A program made the translations under genes and the position numbers. Under the pieces are notes generated by a model. That model was not told where the DNA came from and ran no database searches. It saw only the letters and a list, made by a program, of their open reading frames with translations. A stretch of DNA of 10,260 nt. Source: a virus (Duplodnaviria; Heunggongvirae; Uroviricota; Caudoviricetes). Shown one piece after another: positions 137-10,260 of the stretch (positions are counted from its first letter, which is position 1; every line of letters starts with the position of its first letter). Where the stretch lies: the IMG/VR virus record IMGVR_UViG_2667527849_000007; one strand, written 5' to 3'.

Positions 137-304
137 ATGACCACTATTACCAAAGAACGTATTGAATTGTTCATTAAAAACCCGCTTGAAAACGGGCTTA
201 CCCGTGGTGAACAAATGGAACTGGCACGGATTGCGCTGGCATCGCTGGAAGCAGAGCCGGTTGTGTTCTGGTTTGAAAAATATCAAGAAGGGGCTACGGC
301 ATGA
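137..304 (+). CDS. small hypothetical phage protein, 55 aa ([55 protein letters not shown])
   Basis: ATG at 137 preceded by AAGGAG (123-128) with 8-nt spacer. Stop TGA 302-304 overlaps the next ATG (ATGA coupling). Below the 60-aa cutoff of the ORF track. Shares N-terminal and IAL.SL.AEP motifs with the next ORF. Confidence 0.55.
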
Positions 305-645
305 CGACTTTTACCAGAGAGCAGTTAATAGCTCACGCAGAGGAGACTATTGAAGCACAGAGACTGTGCATACCGGGCACAATCGACCATGACATCATCC
401 GCACATATAAGATGGATATTGCTGTTCTGGAAATCGCACTGGTATCGCTGGCAGCAGAGCCAGCCGGTAAATTGCATGAATACAAACCAGTGGGATATCA
501 GCGTCTGGTCGATGAGTTAACCATGCTGGTAAAGCAGTTAACCTGGCAACTGAGGAAAGCGAAGCCAGACTGCAAATTACCGGATAAGGCGATGAGTTAT
601 CTGGAGCGGAACGGACTGATAAGCGTGGAGGATATTTTACGATGA
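301..645 (+). CDS. hypothetical phage protein, 114 aa
   Basis: ORF track 301..645. ATG overlaps the upstream stop. N-terminus MTTFTREQL and internal [10 protein letters not shown] resemble the preceding 55-aa ORF and the 4465-4707 ORF. Function not recognised. Confidence 0.55.
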
Positions 646-725
646 CCTGGCCTGAAGCATTAACAACGGTAGGAATTGCGATGGCGGTGGCGCTGGTGGT
701 GTATTCGATTTGCCGCTGGGGATAA
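642..725 (+). CDS. possible small hydrophobic peptide, 27 aa ([27 protein letters not shown])
   Basis: ATG 642-644 overlaps the TGA stop (643-645) of the upstream ORF. Mostly hydrophobic, consistent with a single transmembrane helix. Very short, so it could be chance. Confidence 0.3.
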
Positions 726-1669: not shown

Positions 1670-2728
1670 GTGCGGGTATTACTTCGACCTGTTCTGGTAC
1701 CGGAACTCGGTCTGGTTATCGTTAAGCCAGGCCGTGAATCAATGTCAGCATTCCATAACGGCAGAATACTGGTGGAGCCGGAACCAAAAAGCATGCGTAA
1801 TCTGCCGTCCGGGGTCGTTCCTGCCGCTCGCCAGCCGCTGGTGGAAGACAAAACATTGCTGCCGTTTTTCAGTAACGCACGGGTGATTCGTGCTGCTGGT
1901 GGTGCTGGTGCATTGTCTGACTGGCTGTTGCGCCATATTAAATCCTGCCAGTGGCCACACGGCGATTATCATCACAGCGAAACCGTCATTCACCGTTATG
2001 GTACCGGCGCAATGGTGTTGTGCTGGCACTGCGACAACCAGCTGCGTGACCAGACATCCGAATCACTCGAGCAACTTGCTCATCAAAACCTGTCAGCATG
2101 GATGATTGACGTCATCGGTCACGCAATAAGCGGTACGCAGGAGCGTGAATTATCTCTGGCTGAATTATCCTGGTGGGCGGTCCGCAATCAGGTGGCGGAC
2201 GCGCTACCGGAAGCGGTATTACGTCGTTCGCTGGGGTTGCGTGCGGAAAAAATTCGCTCTGTGTACAGTGAAAGCGACATCATACCGGGAGAGCAGACAG
2301 CCACCAGCATACTGAAGCAGCGCACAAAAAATATTGCGTTACTGCCTCACGTCCACCAGCAACAGAACCCACCACAGGAAAAGACGGTGGTCAGCATTGC
2401 CGTTGATCCGGAGTCACCGGCTCAGTATCTCCAGCGCCAGAAATCACAACGGGAAGAGATGCCTGTATACACGCGCTGGGTAAAAACGCAGAAATGCATG
2501 ACGTGTGGCAATCAGGCAGATGATCCGCATCACATCATTGGTCATGGACTGGGAGGGATGGGAACAAAGGCTGATGATTTGTTTGTTATTCCGTTATGCC
2601 GTAAATGCCGTAACGAACTACATGCCGGAGTAAAAGATTTTGAAGAGAAACACGGCAGTCAGCTGTTGTTGCTGATTCGTTTTTTAATGCACGCGAGAAA
2701 TTCGGGTGTTCTGAAGTGGAAAGCATAA
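1670..2728 (+). CDS. DUF968-family phage protein (YdfU-like) with a C-terminal CxxC...HH...CxxC...H motif
   Basis: 352-aa ORF. C-terminus CMTCGNQADDPHHIIGHGLGG...CRKCRNELH resembles an HNH/zinc-ribbon signature. Gene order (this gene, rusA, Q) matches the ydfU-quuQ neighbourhood of Qin-type prophages as I recall it. Start uncertain: GTG 1670 sits only 4 nt after GGAGG; an in-frame ATG at 1742 is an alternative. Confidence 0.7.
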   Translation: MRVLLRPVLVPELGLVIVKPGRESMSAFHNGRILVEPEPKSMRNLPSGVVPAARQPLVEDKTLLPFFSNARVIRAAGGAGALSDWLLRHIKSCQWPHGDYHHSETVIHRYGTGAMVLCWHCDNQLRDQTSESLEQLAHQNLSAWMIDVIGHAISGTQERELSLAELSWWAVRNQVADALPEAVLRRSLGLRAEKIRSVYSESDIIPGEQTATSILKQRTKNIALLPHVHQQQNPPQEKTVVSIAVDPESPAQYLQRQKSQREEMPVYTRWVKTQKCMTCGNQADDPHHIIGHGLGGMGTKADDLFVIPLCRKCRNELHAGVKDFEEKHGSQLLLLIRFLMHARNSGVLKWKA

Positions 2729-3109
2729 ATGACCGAGCGCATAGAATTTGTTTTACCTTACCCGCCGACGGTGAACACTTACTGGCGTCGTCGTGGCAGC
2801 ACATATTTTGTATCAAAAGCCGGGGAGCGTTATCGCCGGGCAGTGGCGCTTATTGTTCGCCAGCAGCGGCTGAAATTAAGCCTGTCCGGAAGGTTGGCAA
2901 TAAAAATTATTGCAGAACCACCGGATAAGCGCCGCCGTGACCTGGACAATATTCTGAAAGCGCCGCTGGATGCGCTGACGCATGCGGGGTTGCTAATGGA
3001 CGATGAGCAGTTTGATGAAATCAATATCGTTCGTGCTCAGCCAGTATCTGGTGGACGTCTGGGGGTGAAGATTTATCCCATAATGCTTGAAGGGCAGGTC
3101 AAAAAATGA
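2729..3109 (+). CDS. rusA: RusA-family Holliday junction resolvase (crossover junction endodeoxyribonuclease)
   Basis: 126 aa. LPYPPTVNTYWRRRG N-terminus and acidic PDKRRRDLDN and LMDDEQ motifs fit the RusA family. ATG abuts the DUF968 stop; stop overlaps the Q start. Confidence 0.85.
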   Translation: MTERIEFVLPYPPTVNTYWRRRGSTYFVSKAGERYRRAVALIVRQQRLKLSLSGRLAIKIIAEPPDKRRRDLDNILKAPLDALTHAGLLMDDEQFDEINIVRAQPVSGGRLGVKIYPIMLEGQVKK

Positions 3110-3497
3110 AACTGGAAGATTTACCGAAATACTACTCCCCAAAATCCCCCGGCCTGACTGATGCATCGGCCTCAACGTCGAAAGATGCGCTGAGTATCAC
3201 TGATGTGATGGCCGCGCAGGGCATGACACAGAATCGGGCTGAGATGGGGGTTTCTGCGTTCCTTGGGAAAATGGGCATTAGTATGAATGACAGAGAGCGG
3301 GCAACAGAATTGCTGACAGAATATGCACTCAGTCGGTGTGATCGCGTGGCGGCGTTAAGAAAACTCCCGGCAGAAATAAAACCGGCAGTGATGCGTATTA
3401 TGGCTTCGTATGCGTTTGAAGATTATGCCCGTAGCGCGGCGAGCAAAAAACAGTGCCCCTGCTGTCACGGAAAAAAATTTATTGAAAGCGAGGTTTT
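3106..3497 (+). pseudogene. Q-like antiterminator, 5' fragment (codons 1-129) truncated by IS2
   Basis: First 129 codons give the same protein as the intact Q at 7002-7823. Sequence diverges after 3497 into IS2 antisense. The track ORF 3106..3870 is a Q/IS2-antisense chimera. Confidence 0.75.
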
Positions 3498-3498
3498 A

Positions 3499-3915
3499 AT
3501 CACAGCAGAACTCGAACCCGTCAGAGCACCATCGCTGATTGCTTTCTTTCACGGCCACTCTGCCTGTATGTGCCCGTTTCGATGGCGGTACAGCAGGTTT
3601 TCGCTCAAGCAACAGCGCATTCTGGCGCATGATCCGGTAAACACGTTTGGCATTGATCGCAGGCATACCATCAAGTTCTGCCTGTCTGCGAAGCAGCGCC
3701 CATACCCGACGATAACCATACGTGGGCAGCTCTCCGATAACATGGTGTATACGGAGAAGCACATCCGTATCATCAGTGTGACGACTGCGGCGGCCATCCA
3801 TCCAGTCATCGGTTCGTCTGAGAATGACGTGCAACTGCGCACGCGACACCCGGAGACAACGGCTGACTAAGCTTACTCCCCATCCCCGGGCAATAAGGGC
3901 GCGTGCGCTATCCAC
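3499..3915 (-). pseudogene. insD: IS2 InsD (transposase OrfB), N-terminal 139 codons only
   Basis: Minus-strand translation [41 protein letters not shown]...[11 protein letters not shown] matches the IS2 InsD N-terminus. Full InsD is about 300 aa; the reading frame ends at the IS2/Q junction. Confidence 0.8.
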
Positions 3916-4238
3916 TTTTTTGCCCGTCCATATTCAACGGCTTCTTTGAGGAGTTCATTTTCCATCGTTTTCTTGCCGAGCAGGCGCTGGAGTTCTTTAA
4001 TCTGCTTCATGGCGGCAGCAAGTTCAGAGGCAGGAACAACCTGTTCTCCGGCGGCGACAGCAGTAAGACTTCCTTCCTGGTATTGCTTACGCCAGAGAAA
4101 TAACTGGCTGGCTGCTACACCATGTTGCCGGGCAACGAGGGAGACCGTCATCCCCGGTTCAAAGCTCTGCTGAACAATTGCGATCTTTTCCTGTGTGGTA
4201 CGCCGTCTGCGTTTCTCCGGCCCTAAGACATCAATCAT
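3873..4238 (-). CDS. insC: IS2 InsC (transposase OrfA), 121 aa
   Basis: Minus-strand translation [56 protein letters not shown]... matches IS2 InsC from memory. The track ORF 3873..4283 carries a 15-codon upstream extension. Confidence 0.85.
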
Positions 4239-4464
4239 CTGTACTCCAATGACTAGTCTAAAAACTAGTATTAAGACTATCACTTATTTAAGTGATACTG
4301 GTTGTCTGGAGATTCAGGGGGCCAGTCTACGGACATTTTCTGCCTGTGGACCAGGAAAGTGCACGGGTGCTTTCCACTCCCATGAAGCCCGGCAATCCGC
4401 GCAGATACAGTAATAAACGAACTGACAGCAGTAAGATGGAGCGTTTCTTTTGAACAACCAGACA

Positions 4465-4707
4465 ATGACTTTTACCTCTGAACAATTGCGTAAACACGCG
4501 CAGGAAATGCTGCGTCATGCTGAACAACTCGAAAAAACGGGCATAACAAAAGACGCTATCCGTAAAGATATGGTACCCGCGCTTCGGGAACTGATGCAGG
4601 CGAAGCATCGCGCACAGAAAGCAGTAGATGAGCTGGTGGACTGTGTGGCAGAGCTGGAAACCAGAGTCGGAAAGTTTGAAAAACTGGTGCAGGAGGTGCT
4701 GCGCTGA
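4465..4707 (+). CDS. hypothetical small phage protein, 80 aa (85 aa if the TTG at 4450 is used)
   Basis: ORF track 4450..4707. Likely start is ATG 4465 (MTFTSEQLRKHAQEM...). N-terminus resembles the ORFs at 137-304 and 301-645. Stop overlaps the rusA' start (TGATG). Confidence 0.5.
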   Translation: MTFTSEQLRKHAQEMLRHAEQLEKTGITKDAIRKDMVPALRELMQAKHRAQKAVDELVDCVAELETRVGKFEKLVQEVLR

Positions 4708-5081
4708 TGCGCCATGAGTTTATTTTACCTTATCCGCCGACGGTGAATACTTACTGGCGACGTCGTGACAACACATATTTTGTATCAAAAGCCGGTGAGC
4801 GTTATCGCCGGGATGTGGCGCTTATTGTCCGTCAGCAGCGACTGAAATTAAGCCTGTCCGGAAGACTGGCGATAAAGATTATTGCAGAGCCACCGGATAA
4901 GCGCCGTCGTGACCTGGACAATATCCTGAAAGCACCACTGGATGCACTGACACATGCGGGAGTGTTAATGGACGATGAGCAGTTTGATGAAATCAATATC
5001 GTTCGTGCTCAGCCAGTATCTGGTGGACGTCTGGGGGTGAAGATTTACCCCATAATGCATGAAGAGCAGGTCAAAAAATGA
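4707..5081 (+). CDS. rusA: RusA-family Holliday junction resolvase, divergent second copy
   Basis: 124 aa, roughly 90% identical to the 2729-3109 copy, with a different N-terminus (MRHEFILPY vs MTERIEFVLPY) and scattered substitutions at both nucleotide and protein level. Confidence 0.8.
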   Translation: MRHEFILPYPPTVNTYWRRRDNTYFVSKAGERYRRDVALIVRQQRLKLSLSGRLAIKIIAEPPDKRRRDLDNILKAPLDALTHAGVLMDDEQFDEINIVRAQPVSGGRLGVKIYPIMHEEQVKK

Positions 5082-5823
5082 AACTGGAAGATTTACCGAA
5101 ATACTACTCCCCAAAATCCCCTTGCCTGACCGATGCATCGGCCTCAACGTCAAAAGATGCGCTGAGTATCACTGATGTGATGGCCGCGCAGGGCATGACA
5201 CAGAATCGGGCTGAGATGGGGTTTTCTGCGTTCCTGGGGAAAATGGGCATCAGTATGAATGACAGGGCGCGGGCAACAGAATTACTGGCAGATTATGCAC
5301 TCAGTCGGTGCGATCGTGTGGCGGCGTTGAGAAAACTTCCGGCAGAAATAAAACCGGTAGTGATGCGCATTATGGCTTCGTACGCTTTTGAGGATTATGC
5401 CCGCAGCGCAGCGAGTAAAAAGCAGTGCCCTTGTTGCTATGGGGAAAAATTTATTGAAAGCGTAGTTTTTACAAACAAGGTCCAGTATCCGGATGGTAAG
5501 CCGCCGGTATGGGCAAAGTGTACGAAAGGTGTGTATCCGTCTTACTGGGAAGAATGGAAAAAAGTCAGGGAGGTGGTAAAAGTTGCCTGTCCGGAGTGTG
5601 GCGGAAAGGGTGAGGTTTCCACCGCCTGTAAGGATTGCCGTGGGCGTGGTGTCGCCATTCATCGTGAAGAGTCGGTAAAACGTGGTATGCCTGTTATCAG
5701 AGACTGCCAGCGTTGTGGTGGTCGTGGCTATGAAAGACTACCATCAACGGAGGCATTTAATGCTATATGCGAGGTGACAAACCAGATAACACGCGCGTCA
5801 TGGGAAAAAACAGTTAAGAAATT
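5078..5823 (+). pseudogene. Q-like antiterminator, mosaic copy truncated at codon ~248 by fusion to the middle of a DUF968 gene
   Basis: The 5' half differs from the other Q copies (SPCLTD, ARATELLADYA, CYGEK); the 3' half from about 5481 is identical to copy 3. At about 5821-5825 the sequence switches to DUF968 sequence (matching 1929 onward), giving the track ORF 5078..6001 an out-of-frame 59-aa tail. The last ~25 Q codons are missing. Confidence 0.6.
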
Positions 5824-6624
5824 ATGCGCCATATTAAATCCTGCCAGTGGCCACACGGCGATTATCATCACAGCGAAACCGTCATTCACCGTTATGGTAC
5901 CGGCGCAATGGTGTTGTGCTGGCACTGCGACAACCAGCTGCGTGACCAGACATCCGAATCACTCGAGCAACTTGCTCATCAAAACCTGTCAGCATGGATG
6001 ATTGACGTCATCGGTCACGCAATAAGCGGTACGCAGGAGCGTGAATTATCTCTGGCTGAATTATCCTGGTGGGCGGTCCGCAATCAGGTGGCGGACGCGC
6101 TACCGGAAGCGGTATTACGTCGTTCGCTGGGGTTGCGTGCGGAAAAAATTCGCTCTGTGTACAGTGAAAGCGACATCATACCGGGAGAGCAGACAGCCAC
6201 CAGCATACTGAAGCAGCGCACAAAAAATATTGCGTTACTGCCTCACGTCCACCAGCAACAGAACCCACCACAGGAAAAGACGGTGGTCAGCATTGCCGTT
6301 GATCCGGAGTCACCGGCTCAGTATCTCCAGCGCCAGAAATCACAACGGGAAGAGATGCCTGTATACACGCGCTGGGTAAAAACGCAGAAATGCATGACGT
6401 GTGGCAATCAGGCAGATGATCCGCATCACATCATTGGTCATGGACTGGGAGGGATGGGAACAAAGGCTGATGATTTGTTTGTTATTCCGTTATGCCGTAA
6501 ATGCCGTAACGAACTACATGCCGGAGTAAAAGATTTTGAAGAGAAACACGGCAGTCAGCTGTTGTTGCTGATTCGTTTTTTAATGCACGCGAGAAATTCG
6601 GGTGTTCTGAAGTGGAAAGCATAA
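5824..6624 (+). pseudogene. DUF968 (YdfU-like) 3' fragment, C-terminal 266 codons with a junction-created ATG
   Basis: Protein identical to the C-terminal portion of the 1670-2728 product. The ATG at 5824 exists only because the junction reads ATTATGCGCC where the full copy reads CTGTTGCGCC. Retains the CxxC/HH motif region. Whether it is translated is unknown. Confidence 0.6.
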
Positions 6625-7393
6625 ATGACCGAGCGCATAGAATTTGTTTTACCTTACCCGCCGACGGTGAACACTTACTGGCGTCGTCGTGGCAGCACAT
6701 ATTTTGTATCAAAAGCCGGGGAGCGTTATCGCCGGGCAGTGGCGCTTATTGTTCGCCAGCAGCGGCTGAAATTAAGCCTGTCCGGAAGGTTGGCAATAAA
6801 AATTATTGCAGAACCACCGGATAAGCGCCGCCGTGACCTGGACAATATTCTGAAAGCGCCGCTGGATGCGCTGACGCATGCGGGGTTGCTAATGGACGAT
6901 GAGCAGTTTGATGAAATCAATATCGTTCGTGCTCAGCCAGTATCTGGTGGACGTCTGGGGGTGAAGATTTATCCCATAATGCTTGAAGGGCAGGTCAAAA
7001 AATGAAACTGGAAGATTTACCGAAATACTACTCCCCAAAATCCCCCGGCCTGACTGATGCATCGGCCTCAACGTCGAAAGATGCGCTGAGTATCACTGAT
7101 GTGATGGCCGCGCAGGGCATGACACAGAATCGGGCTGAGATGGGGGTTTCTGCGTTCCTTGGGAAAATGGGCATTAGTATGAATGACAGAGAGCGGGCAA
7201 CAGAATTGCTGACAGAATATGCACTCAGTCGGTGTGATCGCGTGGCGGCGTTAAGAAAACTCCCGGCAGAAATAAAACCGGCAGTGATGCGTATTATGGC
7301 TTCGTATGCGTTTGAAGATTATGCCCGTAGCGCGGCGAGCAAAAAACAGTGCCCCTGCTGTCACGGAAAAAAATTTATTGAAAGCGAGGTTTT
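5825..7393 (+). repeat. direct repeat copy B, partner of 1929-3497
   Basis: See copy A. Its left boundary is the Q'/DUF968 fusion junction; its right boundary is where copy A is interrupted by IS2. Confidence 0.8.
6625..7005 (+). CDS. rusA: RusA-family Holliday junction resolvase, third copy, identical in protein to 2729-3109
   Basis: Identical 126-aa translation to copy 1, and the antisense shadow ORFs are also identical, implying nucleotide identity. Confidence 0.85.
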   Translation: MTERIEFVLPYPPTVNTYWRRRGSTYFVSKAGERYRRAVALIVRQQRLKLSLSGRLAIKIIAEPPDKRRRDLDNILKAPLDALTHAGLLMDDEQFDEINIVRAQPVSGGRLGVKIYPIMLEGQVKK

Positions 7394-9494: not shown

Positions 9495-9570
9495 GGCCCT
9501 TTAGCTCAGTGGTGAGAGCGAGCGACTCATAATCGCCAGGTCGCTGGTTCAAATCCAGCAAGGGCCACCA
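9495..9570 (+). tRNA. ileZ: tRNA with CAT anticodon, most likely tRNA-Ile2 (lysidine-modified, reads AUA); tRNA-Met not excluded
   Basis: Hand-folded cloverleaf: acceptor GGCCCTT / AAGGGCC, D-stem GCTC/GAGC, anticodon loop CTCATAA, T-loop TTCAAAT, encoded CCA. Closely resembles E. coli ileX-type tRNA. Symbol by analogy with the ileZ-argN-argO cluster of Stx phages, from memory. Confidence 0.8.
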
Positions 9571-9577
9571 TCACATA

Positions 9578-9654
9578 CCGCCATTAGCTCATCAGGAAAG
9601 AGCGCCAGCCTTCGAAGCTGGCTGCGCGGGGTTCAAGTCCCCGATGGCGGTCCA
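9578..9654 (+). tRNA. argN: tRNA-Arg, anticodon TCG (reads CGA)
   Basis: Acceptor CCGCCAT / ATGGCGG, anticodon stem CCAGC/GCTGG, loop CTTCGAA, T-loop TTCAAGT, encoded CCA. Anticodon read by hand; symbol by analogy only. Confidence 0.75.
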
Positions 9655-9667
9655 TTATCTGCATCAT

Positions 9668-9744
9668 GCGTTGTTAGCTCAGCCGGACAGAGCAATTGCC
9701 TTCTAAGCAATCGGTCACTGGTTCGAATCCAGTACAACGCGCCA
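9668..9744 (+). tRNA. argO: tRNA-Arg, anticodon TCT (reads AGA/AGG)
   Basis: Acceptor GCGTTGT / ACAACGC, anticodon stem ATTGC/GCAAT, loop CTTCTAA, T-loop TTCGAAT, encoded CCA. Symbol by analogy only. Confidence 0.8.
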
Positions 9745-9784: not shown

Positions 9785-10260
9785 AAATGTCTCACAATTC
9801 AGACGGTTGACAGTTGTCTGTTTTGCGGGGAGTTTGTTAAAAGAAACTGGCATGGTGAATCCCCCTGTGCGGAGGGGCAATCAGCGAGTAGGTATATGGG
9901 ATAATCGCGGATTCAGGTGCTGGTACTGAATTCACCGGGAGGCACCCGGCATCATGCAATGGCACATAGCGCCACTCTCCAGCCCTCTCCGGAGGGGCTT
10001 TTCTGTGCCGGATACATCACAGTTTCTGGAACCTTAGGTACTACAGTATCAGTCAGGGTGCTATATTTTCAGATGTGATGAAAGCCTGTCAGCAGGCAGG
10101 GCGTATCGGAAATGACCCAGTAGAGAAAACGTTGACTCAGATACCGGTGCTGAGTTACCGGGAAACCGGCATCACATGACCGCTATCCTGAGGTGTACTG
10201 GCAATAGCGGACACTACCATTTGTTCTTTTTTTAAGCAGCCATCTGATGATATTTTTCCC

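Follow-up and report, generated by a model that had tools for sequence, protein, structure and literature searches.

Module shuffling in two early genes of a lambdoid prophage and a candidate 27-residue membrane peptide probably coupled behind them

What are the small genes that lie at the end of the early region of a lambdoid prophage, just upstream of the hok toxin gene, and how are they related to one another? The stretch in which they lie, of 10,260 nucleotides (nt), belongs to the IMG/VR virus record IMGVR_UViG_2667527849_000007 and is referred to, at its full length, as the window. It is a lambdoid prophage segment from Escherichia/Shigella, and its positions 137-725 are the tail end of an early accessory gene array situated between the replication genes and a hok - DUF968 - RusA - Q block. 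A first-pass annotation had read three open reading frames (ORFs) here, of 55 (137-304), 114 (301-645) and 27 (642-725) residues, with ATGA overlaps at 301-304 and 642-645, and these boundaries proved exact. We call the three ORFs orf55, orf114 and orf27. The explanation that best accounts for our results, and which we consider probable, is that orf55 and orf114 belong to a mosaic family, that orf27 is a mobile gene coupled to its upstream neighbour, and that a further ORF at 4465-4707, which had been proposed as a third relative, is unrelated and resembles gene L20 of phage phiP27. The features on which the argument depends are the following.

137-304, + strand: orf55, a protein consisting of the N-module only, called 'Eaa protein' or hypothetical in databases (phrog_3323, E = 1.3e-19; phrog_60, 4.3e-18).
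137-259, + strand: N-module of orf55 (residues 1-41, terminal motif at 230-259), from BLASTP, the cap alignment and the direct repeat.
260-304, + strand: tail of orf55, its last 15 codons (residues 42-55 and the stop), from DNA alignment to the HNH gene of phage ArgO145 and a phrog_2118 HNH match on residues 31-54.
301-645, + strand: orf114, a minimal protein of N-module, linker and C-module (phrog_660, 8e-43; homologues; structure model).
301-462, + strand: N-module of orf114 (residues 1-54, terminal motif at 433-462), from modelled helices 6-22 and 30-51 and the alignment.
490-642, + strand: C-module of orf114 (residues about 64-114, beginning ELTMLVKQL), three modelled helices, found in hundreds of longer proteins.
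627-631, + strand: GGAGG, the putative Shine-Dalgarno (SD) sequence of orf27, within the last orf114 codons; an equivalent GGAGGTG is present in upstream genes of the DUF551 and 933W types.
642-725, + strand: orf27, predicted to encode a single-span hydrophobic peptide of 27 residues, from conservation, boundaries and the ratio of nonsynonymous to synonymous polymorphism (pN/pS).

The first-pass annotation had claimed that orf55 and orf114 share their N-terminus and an IALxSLxAEP segment, and pairwise alignment bears this out: BLASTP aligns the two proteins with E = 1e-5 over 54 residues, 18 of them identical (33%), spanning both MTT[IF]T and IALxSLxAEP. The DNA encoding the second motif forms a direct repeat of 29 nt, its copies at 230-258 and 433-461 being 86% identical and 203 nt apart. 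The two N-termini are a genuine common protein module, which we call the cap; the proposed paralogy thus stands for one module of about 41-54 residues, not for the whole genes. Within its family the cap measures 41-69 residues, with conserved ends (a start of the form MTT[FI]T[KR]E[QR]L and an end motif initiated by [RK]) and a hypervariable middle. Its members are described by the pattern MTT[FI]Tx[EK]x[LI] followed 20-50 residues on by the end motif, and both orf55 (MTTITKERI) and orf114 (MTTFTREQL) conform to it. The common 'MT' start is partly mechanical, in that the second codon begins with A because the start is of the ATGA type. The cap family corresponds to PHROGs 660, 3323, 5117 and 60, which orf55 and orf114 match with E values of 1e-19 to 8e-43. 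It has no Pfam entry; Pfam and NCBIfam scans gave nothing significant for either protein (in Pfam, no match at E <= 1) and a PADLOC scan gave no match.

At least 12 cap subtypes are known, among them YfdT (b2363) from the cryptic prophage CPS-53 of E. coli K-12. YfdT has the same cap (MTTFTNKELIKEIKERISSLEVRDDIERRAYEIALVSLEVEP; hhalign against the cap alignment 98%, E = 1e-14) and is likewise encoded by a prophage early-region gene, directly after the DUF551 gene yfdS, but its C-terminal part is different and lacks the C-module, and no orf27 follows it. CPS-53, the sole K-12 prophage examined, contains no orf27 copy at all. Only multicopy phenotypes are known for yfdQRST: in multicopy, yfdQ and yfdR together with either yfdS or yfdT damp replication over-initiation (PMC4776307).

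An AlphaFold2 model of orf114, obtained from a 45-sequence alignment with a mean predicted local distance difference test (pLDDT) score of 77, shows the cap as an antiparallel helical hairpin (helices 6-22 and 30-51, block pLDDT 78-91 over residues 1-50), followed by a low-confidence linker (52-63) and the C-module helices (64-87, 95-103 and 109-113). The helix-loop-helix arrangement was looked for in the orf114 model only, and it is present there. Structure searches returned only generic helical hairpins, and PDB sequence searches with orf114 and with the ORF at 4465-4707 (orf80) only chance or designed-helix matches. We propose that the cap may work at the protein level, as a scaffold or oligomerisation element on which variable C-terminal parts are displayed.

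The relatives of orf114 reveal how such parts are combined. The 238 proteins retrieved in a database search are similar to only part of it, which points to a modular build, and when 1.84 billion cluster representatives were searched with a profile, 815 clusters (50% identity) matched at E <= 1e-3, with lengths of 50-395 residues. In this family the cap is followed by a cargo of 0 to about 250 residues (DUF551, for example) and often by the three-helix C-module, and the architectures seen include cap, cargo and C-module; cap and DUF551; and an Ea22 N-terminus and coiled coil joined to the C-module. The protein encoded by orf114 is the minimal form, cap plus C-module, and shorter proteins of the same form recur (P0326). 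In orf55, the DNA from base 260, directly past the AEP, is 100% identical to the 3' end of an HNH endonuclease gene, and the matching HNH gene precedes the orf114 homologue in phage ArgO145; orf55 therefore combines a cap with the final 15 codons of a different gene, and a recombination junction directly past the AEP would have created it as a cap-only protein. Two hybrids among the homologues are joined at the same kinds of places. P0031 consists of residues 1-37 of orf55 and 51-114 of orf114, joined inside IALASL(E/A)AEP, and P0017 is joined inside the first nine codons, with the start of an 87-residue gene (MATLTKKER) leading into orf114. Given P0017 and the MATLTKKER start of the 87-residue gene, recombination between otherwise unrelated array genes seems to use the first nine codons as a common joint. 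Both orf55 and orf114 are products of module shuffling in a large mosaic family.

Junctions of this kind could mean that the N-terminal and end motifs are mainly DNA-level 'linker' homology that promotes recombination, and no functional protein domain. The junctions fall exactly at the motifs, in the orf55 tail as in P0031 and P0017, and the end motif is itself the direct repeat of the window. This reading has to account for the codons, however. When cap subtypes are compared, synonymous differences affect 35% of the codon pairs for a shared amino acid in the first 9 codons and 43% in the last 11, and within the window orf55 and orf114 differ at 3 of the 8 codons for residues that they share in the IALxSLxAEP motif, with the amino-acid sequence kept; selection therefore acts on the peptide. 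The AlphaFold2 model also puts the end motif at the end of a confident helix. As the whole explanation, DNA linkage seems to us unlikely, but the DNA-linker and protein-domain roles are not mutually exclusive, and the conserved cap ends may double as preferred joints for module shuffling.

Could orf55 and orf114 instead be non-functional recombination debris, cargo-less remnants of longer genes of the Eaa or DUF551 type? The foreign 14-residue tail of orf55 and the lack in orf114 of the cargo present in most relatives would fit such an origin, as would the setting, since the window also holds an IS2 fragment, a truncated Q and segmental duplications, and a cap pseudogene lies nearby in the closest genome (L001). 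Against this, each of the two occurs intact, in identical or nearly identical form, on more than 1000 contigs, both retain SD sequences and stop-start overlaps, both occur in inducible or isolated phages (689R5, ArgO145), and even shorter cap and C-module forms recur. The pN/pS values, 0.29 for orf114 (8 variants) and 0.13 for orf55 (4 variants), are compatible with function, although they are weak evidence. Debris is possible, especially for orf55, but for the pair we regard it as improbable.

The mosaic family of orf55 and orf114 has a parallel in architecture. Ea22 proteins are mosaics of an N-terminus, a coiled coil and a variable C-terminal domain, which can be DUF551, and are tetrameric and pro-lysogenic (PMC10834534). 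The Ead/Ea22-like genes of lambda and Stx phages (Pfam PF13935, IPR025153) stand in the same array as orf55 and orf114 and share with them the plan of a constant N-terminal part with swappable C-terminal domains, DUF551 included (PMC10834534). There are also direct links: a C-module of the orf114 type is fused to an Ea22 N-terminus and coiled coil in P0342, and orf27 follows Ea22-annotated genes in the PhiR12 and PhiR5 phages. Unlike the Ead/Ea22-like proteins, orf55 and orf114 have no PF13935 match, and in place of a long coiled coil the model of orf114 shows a short hairpin as its cap. Many DUF551 proteins (PF04448, as in YfdS and Ea22 V2) begin with the same cap (P0066, with a PF04448 match of 1e-21, L126 and L004), whereas in the Pfam scan orf55 and orf114 are without a DUF551 domain. 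Since Ea22-type mosaicism is already known, the orf55/orf114 family is in itself nothing unusual; what is new, though incremental, is that the cap (K-12 YfdT included) and the C-module have been delimited.

The third ORF does not belong to this family.

4450-4707, + strand: orf80/85, a phiP27 L20-like helical protein, from 94% identity to phiP27 L20 and its homologue family.

The ORF at 4465-4707 had been put forward as a third, 'cross-prophage' paralogue. BLASTP aligns it with orf114 (E = 2e-4) over 33 residues, in the first helix only; it gives no alignment with orf55, and the end motif of the cap is absent from the protein. When the cap family is compared with the family of this ORF by profile-profile alignment, hhalign assigns a probability of 14% over 19 columns. 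That family has 187 homologues; a length of 85 residues is shared by nearly all of the 120 that were listed, and the family start lies five codons upstream at a TTG (4450) with GGAG in front. In intact phages this TTG overlaps the stop of a DnaB-like helicase gene, and a 65%-identical homologue has Thr where 'MTFT' has its 'initiator' Met. We therefore rejected the ORF as a cap paralogue: its similarity is confined to the first residues. Judged by its sequence, 4450-4707 is a gene like L20 of phiP27 (NP_543072; 94% identity over 80 residues), whose first helix merely resembles the start of the cap. In phiP27 the L20 gene also stands after the replicative helicase gene and before RusA/Q, but in the window only a 3' remnant of the helicase gene is left beside an IS2 fragment. 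This remnant of the DnaB-like helicase gene occupies 4292-4453, adjoining the IS2 fragment, and in phiP27 and Stx phages the gene precedes the orf80 homologue.

What, then, is the 27-codon ORF that ends the array? The first-pass description of orf27 as hydrophobic and just upstream of hok was accurate (HOK_GEF, 3e-23; Rfam sok, 767-942). Copies were collected with a degenerate DNA pattern that fixes M-T-W-P-E-A and Y-x-I-C-R-W, 12 of the 27 residues, so that the unbiased sample for selection consists of the 14 central codons left free. Prophage contigs in IMG/VR yielded 126 copies in 53 distinct DNA versions, and all but 2 copies have 27 codons. Over the 14 free codons pN/pS is 0.40-0.41 in the orf27 frame, compared with about 1-1.4 in three of the five other frames (both other sense frames, 1.0-1.4), and none of 54 variants has an internal stop in the orf27 frame. 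The peptide consensus is M[TSN]WP[ED]A..x..G...A.A....S..RW[GRW], with W3, P4, G11, A15, S22, R25 and W26 the most conserved positions and a hydrophobic core at residues 7-23 (mean Kyte-Doolittle value 1.3-2.8). Diverged copies with 59-67% peptide identity, located after DUF551 or Ea22 genes and beside xis-int in BP-4795, PhiR12_1 and PhiR5_1, still have exactly 27 codons and keep the start codon, the SD and the overlap with the upstream stop. The first-pass annotation had asked whether the 27-codon ORF is conserved, and the answer is strongly affirmative: its length is kept nearly throughout, in many genomes and in diverged copies. By length, start, SD, frame and purifying selection, orf27 looks like a real gene, a conserved and mobile coding unit. 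The peptide has nothing significant in Pfam or NCBIfam and no similarity to any Pfam, NCBIfam or PADLOC family, and a literature search for the peptide string found no paper.

This putative gene is widespread. It is present in 1636 of 5426 complete E. coli genomes (about 30%), a single genome having it at as many as 7 places, and 164 of the places are on plasmids; one copy is on an 87-kb plasmid of P1 size, and orf27 occurs on phage-plasmids as well as in the Stx phages 933W and VT2-Sakai. Among species representatives the strict pattern found it only in Escherichia and Shigella. E. coli-type copies were also seen on a Xanthomonas pisi contig (L131, 431 nt) and an Acinetobacter idrijaensis contig (L133, 369 nt); these look like contamination, and the Xanthomonas contig, the one of the two that was read, runs on into hok-type downstream sequence. 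The RefSeq/PGAP annotation leaves orf27 out in every region inspected, and GenBank has scattered 27-residue entries called 'prophage protein', 'bacteriophage protein' or 'hypothetical protein'.

Its position is equally characteristic. Wherever the upstream gene could be read, the orf27 ATG overlaps its stop (as ATGA or TGATG), and the SD sits in its last codons. The upstream genes end in three unrelated types of C-terminus: the C-module, DUF551 (...HWMPLPEPPQEVNQ), which is the second commonest partner, and the type of 933W L0139 (...ENDLKNIEQEVNR). Past the orf27 stop the sequences diverge immediately, and more than 10 different contexts follow. The next unit is hok/sok in 72 of 126 copies (57%); in 43% of the sampled loci hok is absent there, and many of the non-hok contexts have terminator-like hairpins. 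The edges of the unit can be seen in individual phages, homology with the window starting at the orf27 ATG in 933W and 606R7 and stopping at the orf27 stop in ArgO145. Because it lies upstream of the hok/sok unit and is found without hok in 43% of the loci, orf27 is outside that unit and is no satellite of hok.

Several single observations concern the same operon end. The conserved DUF551 C-terminus (PEPPQEVNQ, then the stop) is encoded by the orf27 SD region (GGAGGTGAATCAATGA; L126 1990-2004, L136/L137 about 1185-1204, L003 about 2485-2504), so part of the apparent protein conservation of the DUF551 C-terminus may serve translation of the next gene. In E. coli CI5 (L127 2131-2235) an annotated hydrophobic ORF of 34 residues (MSDDISLAMEGALAVIAVVIVYCLVVFLMDRLGN, WP_072134538.1) stands directly past the orf27 copy and is possibly a second small membrane peptide at this place. 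The record of phage vB_EcoS-689R5 (L002 5642-5752) has a 1-nt deletion directly past the orf27 ATG, which gives a different, annotated ORF of 36 residues. In P0011 (E. coli, 143 residues), orf114 and orf27 are fused by a frameshift. We also considered a programmed frameshift that would fuse orf27 to the upstream protein as a tail anchor, and rejected it: inspection by eye, with no scan run, found no slippery heptamer in three upstream contexts, and the P0011 fusion is a rare variant.

A conserved short sequence so often next to hok might owe its conservation to an RNA or DNA element, for example a control region of hok/sok, or to an ORF on the opposite strand, orf27 itself being non-coding. 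Besides the 57% of loci in which it abuts hok/sok and its absence from RefSeq/PGAP annotation, the antisense frame that shares its wobble positions has a pN/pS of 0.35. That frame has stops in 4 of 54 variants, against none for orf27, and its extension runs into variable flanks that are not conserved. Homology ends at the orf27 stop and hok is often missing beyond it, Rfam has no family over 642-725, and the hydrophobic single-span character is kept, together with the start, SD, overlap and 27-codon length at 59-67% peptide identity. A non-coding orf27 is, on this evidence, decidedly unlikely.

Somewhat less remote, though still rather unlikely, is that orf27 encodes a killer peptide of the type I toxin kind or an accessory of Hok. 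Hydrophobic peptides of similar size are known in DinQ, ShoB and TisB, the orf27 peptide of 27 residues is often beside hok, and it has a weak match of glycine-zipper type (DUF883_C, E = 0.029, below cut-off). No HOK_GEF (PF01848), NCBIfam Hok/toxin or PADLOC match was found, however, nor an antisense RNA family (Rfam, 642-725) or a promoter-like site of its own. The strong SD and the proposed co-translation with ordinary early genes differ from translational silencing, and orf27 is tolerated in up to 7 places per genome.

On the reading that we prefer, orf27 probably works as follows. The stop-start overlap and the SD in the last upstream codons would allow it to be made by termination-reinitiation, and the upstream partner of this coupling may be any of the three unrelated gene types. 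As the last cistron it would close the operon segment, with hok/sok, a terminator-like hairpin or another gene directly after it. The peptide is predicted to insert in the inner membrane with its charged N-terminus (E5) outside and R25 inside, where its possible role is to modulate a membrane protein of the host or to contribute to exclusion. Among the small membrane proteins with one span that E. coli and its phages encode are AcrZ, MgtS and KdpF and the type I toxins Hok, DinQ and TisB. The predicted orf27 peptide is like them in size, in having a single hydrophobic helix with aromatic and charged residues on either side and in being often missed by annotation, but it has no family similarity to them, and its proposed expression is by upstream coupling and not from a regulated transcript of its own. 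Extended further, orf27 would represent an undescribed family of 27-residue phage membrane peptides, always the coupled last cistron behind Ea22, DUF551 or cap-type genes in temperate coliphages and phage-plasmids, and would be the effector arm of the early proteins, with the inner membrane of the host as its target (superinfection exclusion and control of a host transporter or sensor are examples); cap and C-module would be the 'bookends' of a cargo-swapping cassette system. We offer this broader proposal tentatively.

Several points count against the overall explanation, in which orf55 and orf114 are members of a functional mosaic family and orf27 is a coupled gene. orf55 could be a harmless leftover, and its 4 variants are too few for a firm selection test. 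Homology between the cap and the N-terminal region of Ea22 was considered and rejected (hhalign, 0.3%), which leaves the analogy with Ea22 architectural only. It is by inference that we assign the cap a role in scaffolding or oligomerisation and orf27 one as a membrane modulator. For orf27, only the 14 middle codons are free of the bias of the search pattern, and the low pN/pS is shared by one antisense frame. The peptide string is absent from the supplements of the O157 Ribo-seq study of Hücker et al. 2017, which is uninformative either way.

The surroundings of the locus are as follows. Positions 1-1191 have 98-99% identical DNA in 241 complete E. coli genomes and in phage vB_EcoS-689R5, and near-identical records have the gene order cI/cro, replication genes, an array of small ead/Ea22-like and hypothetical genes, orf55, orf114, hokD, DUF968, RusA, Q, DNA methylase and tRNAs. 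SD-like sequences precede the starts of orf55 (AAGGAG), orf114 (AAGGGG) and orf27 (GGAGG). The neighbouring features are:

10-126, + strand: 3' end of the 87-residue array gene (MATLTKKER...) that precedes orf55 (phrog_1714, E = 1.9e-16; full gene in loci L001 and L002).
767-942, + strand: hok mRNA leader / sok region of a separate toxin-antitoxin module, beginning 42 nt past the orf27 stop (Rfam RF01794, 112 bits).
880-1092, + strand: mok (70 residues), with hok (937-1092, 51 residues) nested in frame (Pfam HOK_GEF, 3e-23; phrog_251).
1161-1178: terminator hairpin past hok.

Phage 933W has SokW annotated on the opposite strand, at positions equivalent to about 817-887. Between hok and DUF968 the window has a 94-residue ORF (1310-1594) without a Pfam or PADLOC match; in the closest genome (L001) the same position is occupied by a helix-turn-helix gene and an ImmA/IrrE gene. 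Further on, 1929-3497 is duplicated base for base at 5825-7393 (1569 nt, offset 3896 nt), comprising part of DUF968, RusA and the 5' part of Q, and a third RusA-Q copy, 83-97% identical, lies at 4709-5460. At 5824/5825 the middle Q-like ORF (5078-6001) continues, out of frame, into the second copy of DUF968. The RusA-Q repeats could have arisen by recombination between two prophages or could be an assembly artefact. The first Q gene is interrupted at 3497 by the IS2 fragment (InsC and the 5' part of InsD; 3496-4283, - strand). Near the end of the window, 9495-9744 and 9821-10010 contain tRNA-Met(CAT), tRNA-Arg(TCG) and tRNA-Arg(TCT), then a full-length match to the small RNA family STnc100 (123.6 bits).

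Lambdoid and Stx phages have early accessory regions (exo-xis, nin-like arrays) that affect the choice between lysis and lysogeny and the induction of prophages, and that are largely uncharacterised. The cap, as a discrete domain outside Pfam, links YfdT, 'Eaa', 'DUF551' and 'hypothetical' proteins with one another and with the C-module, and so gives a handle for dissecting these mosaics. The sequence features of orf27 make it a good candidate for a small membrane protein of temperate coliphages that has so far gone undescribed; it is concrete, testable and often present in several copies. If its peptide does act on the membrane, it could explain phenotypes that are now credited to its upstream neighbours.

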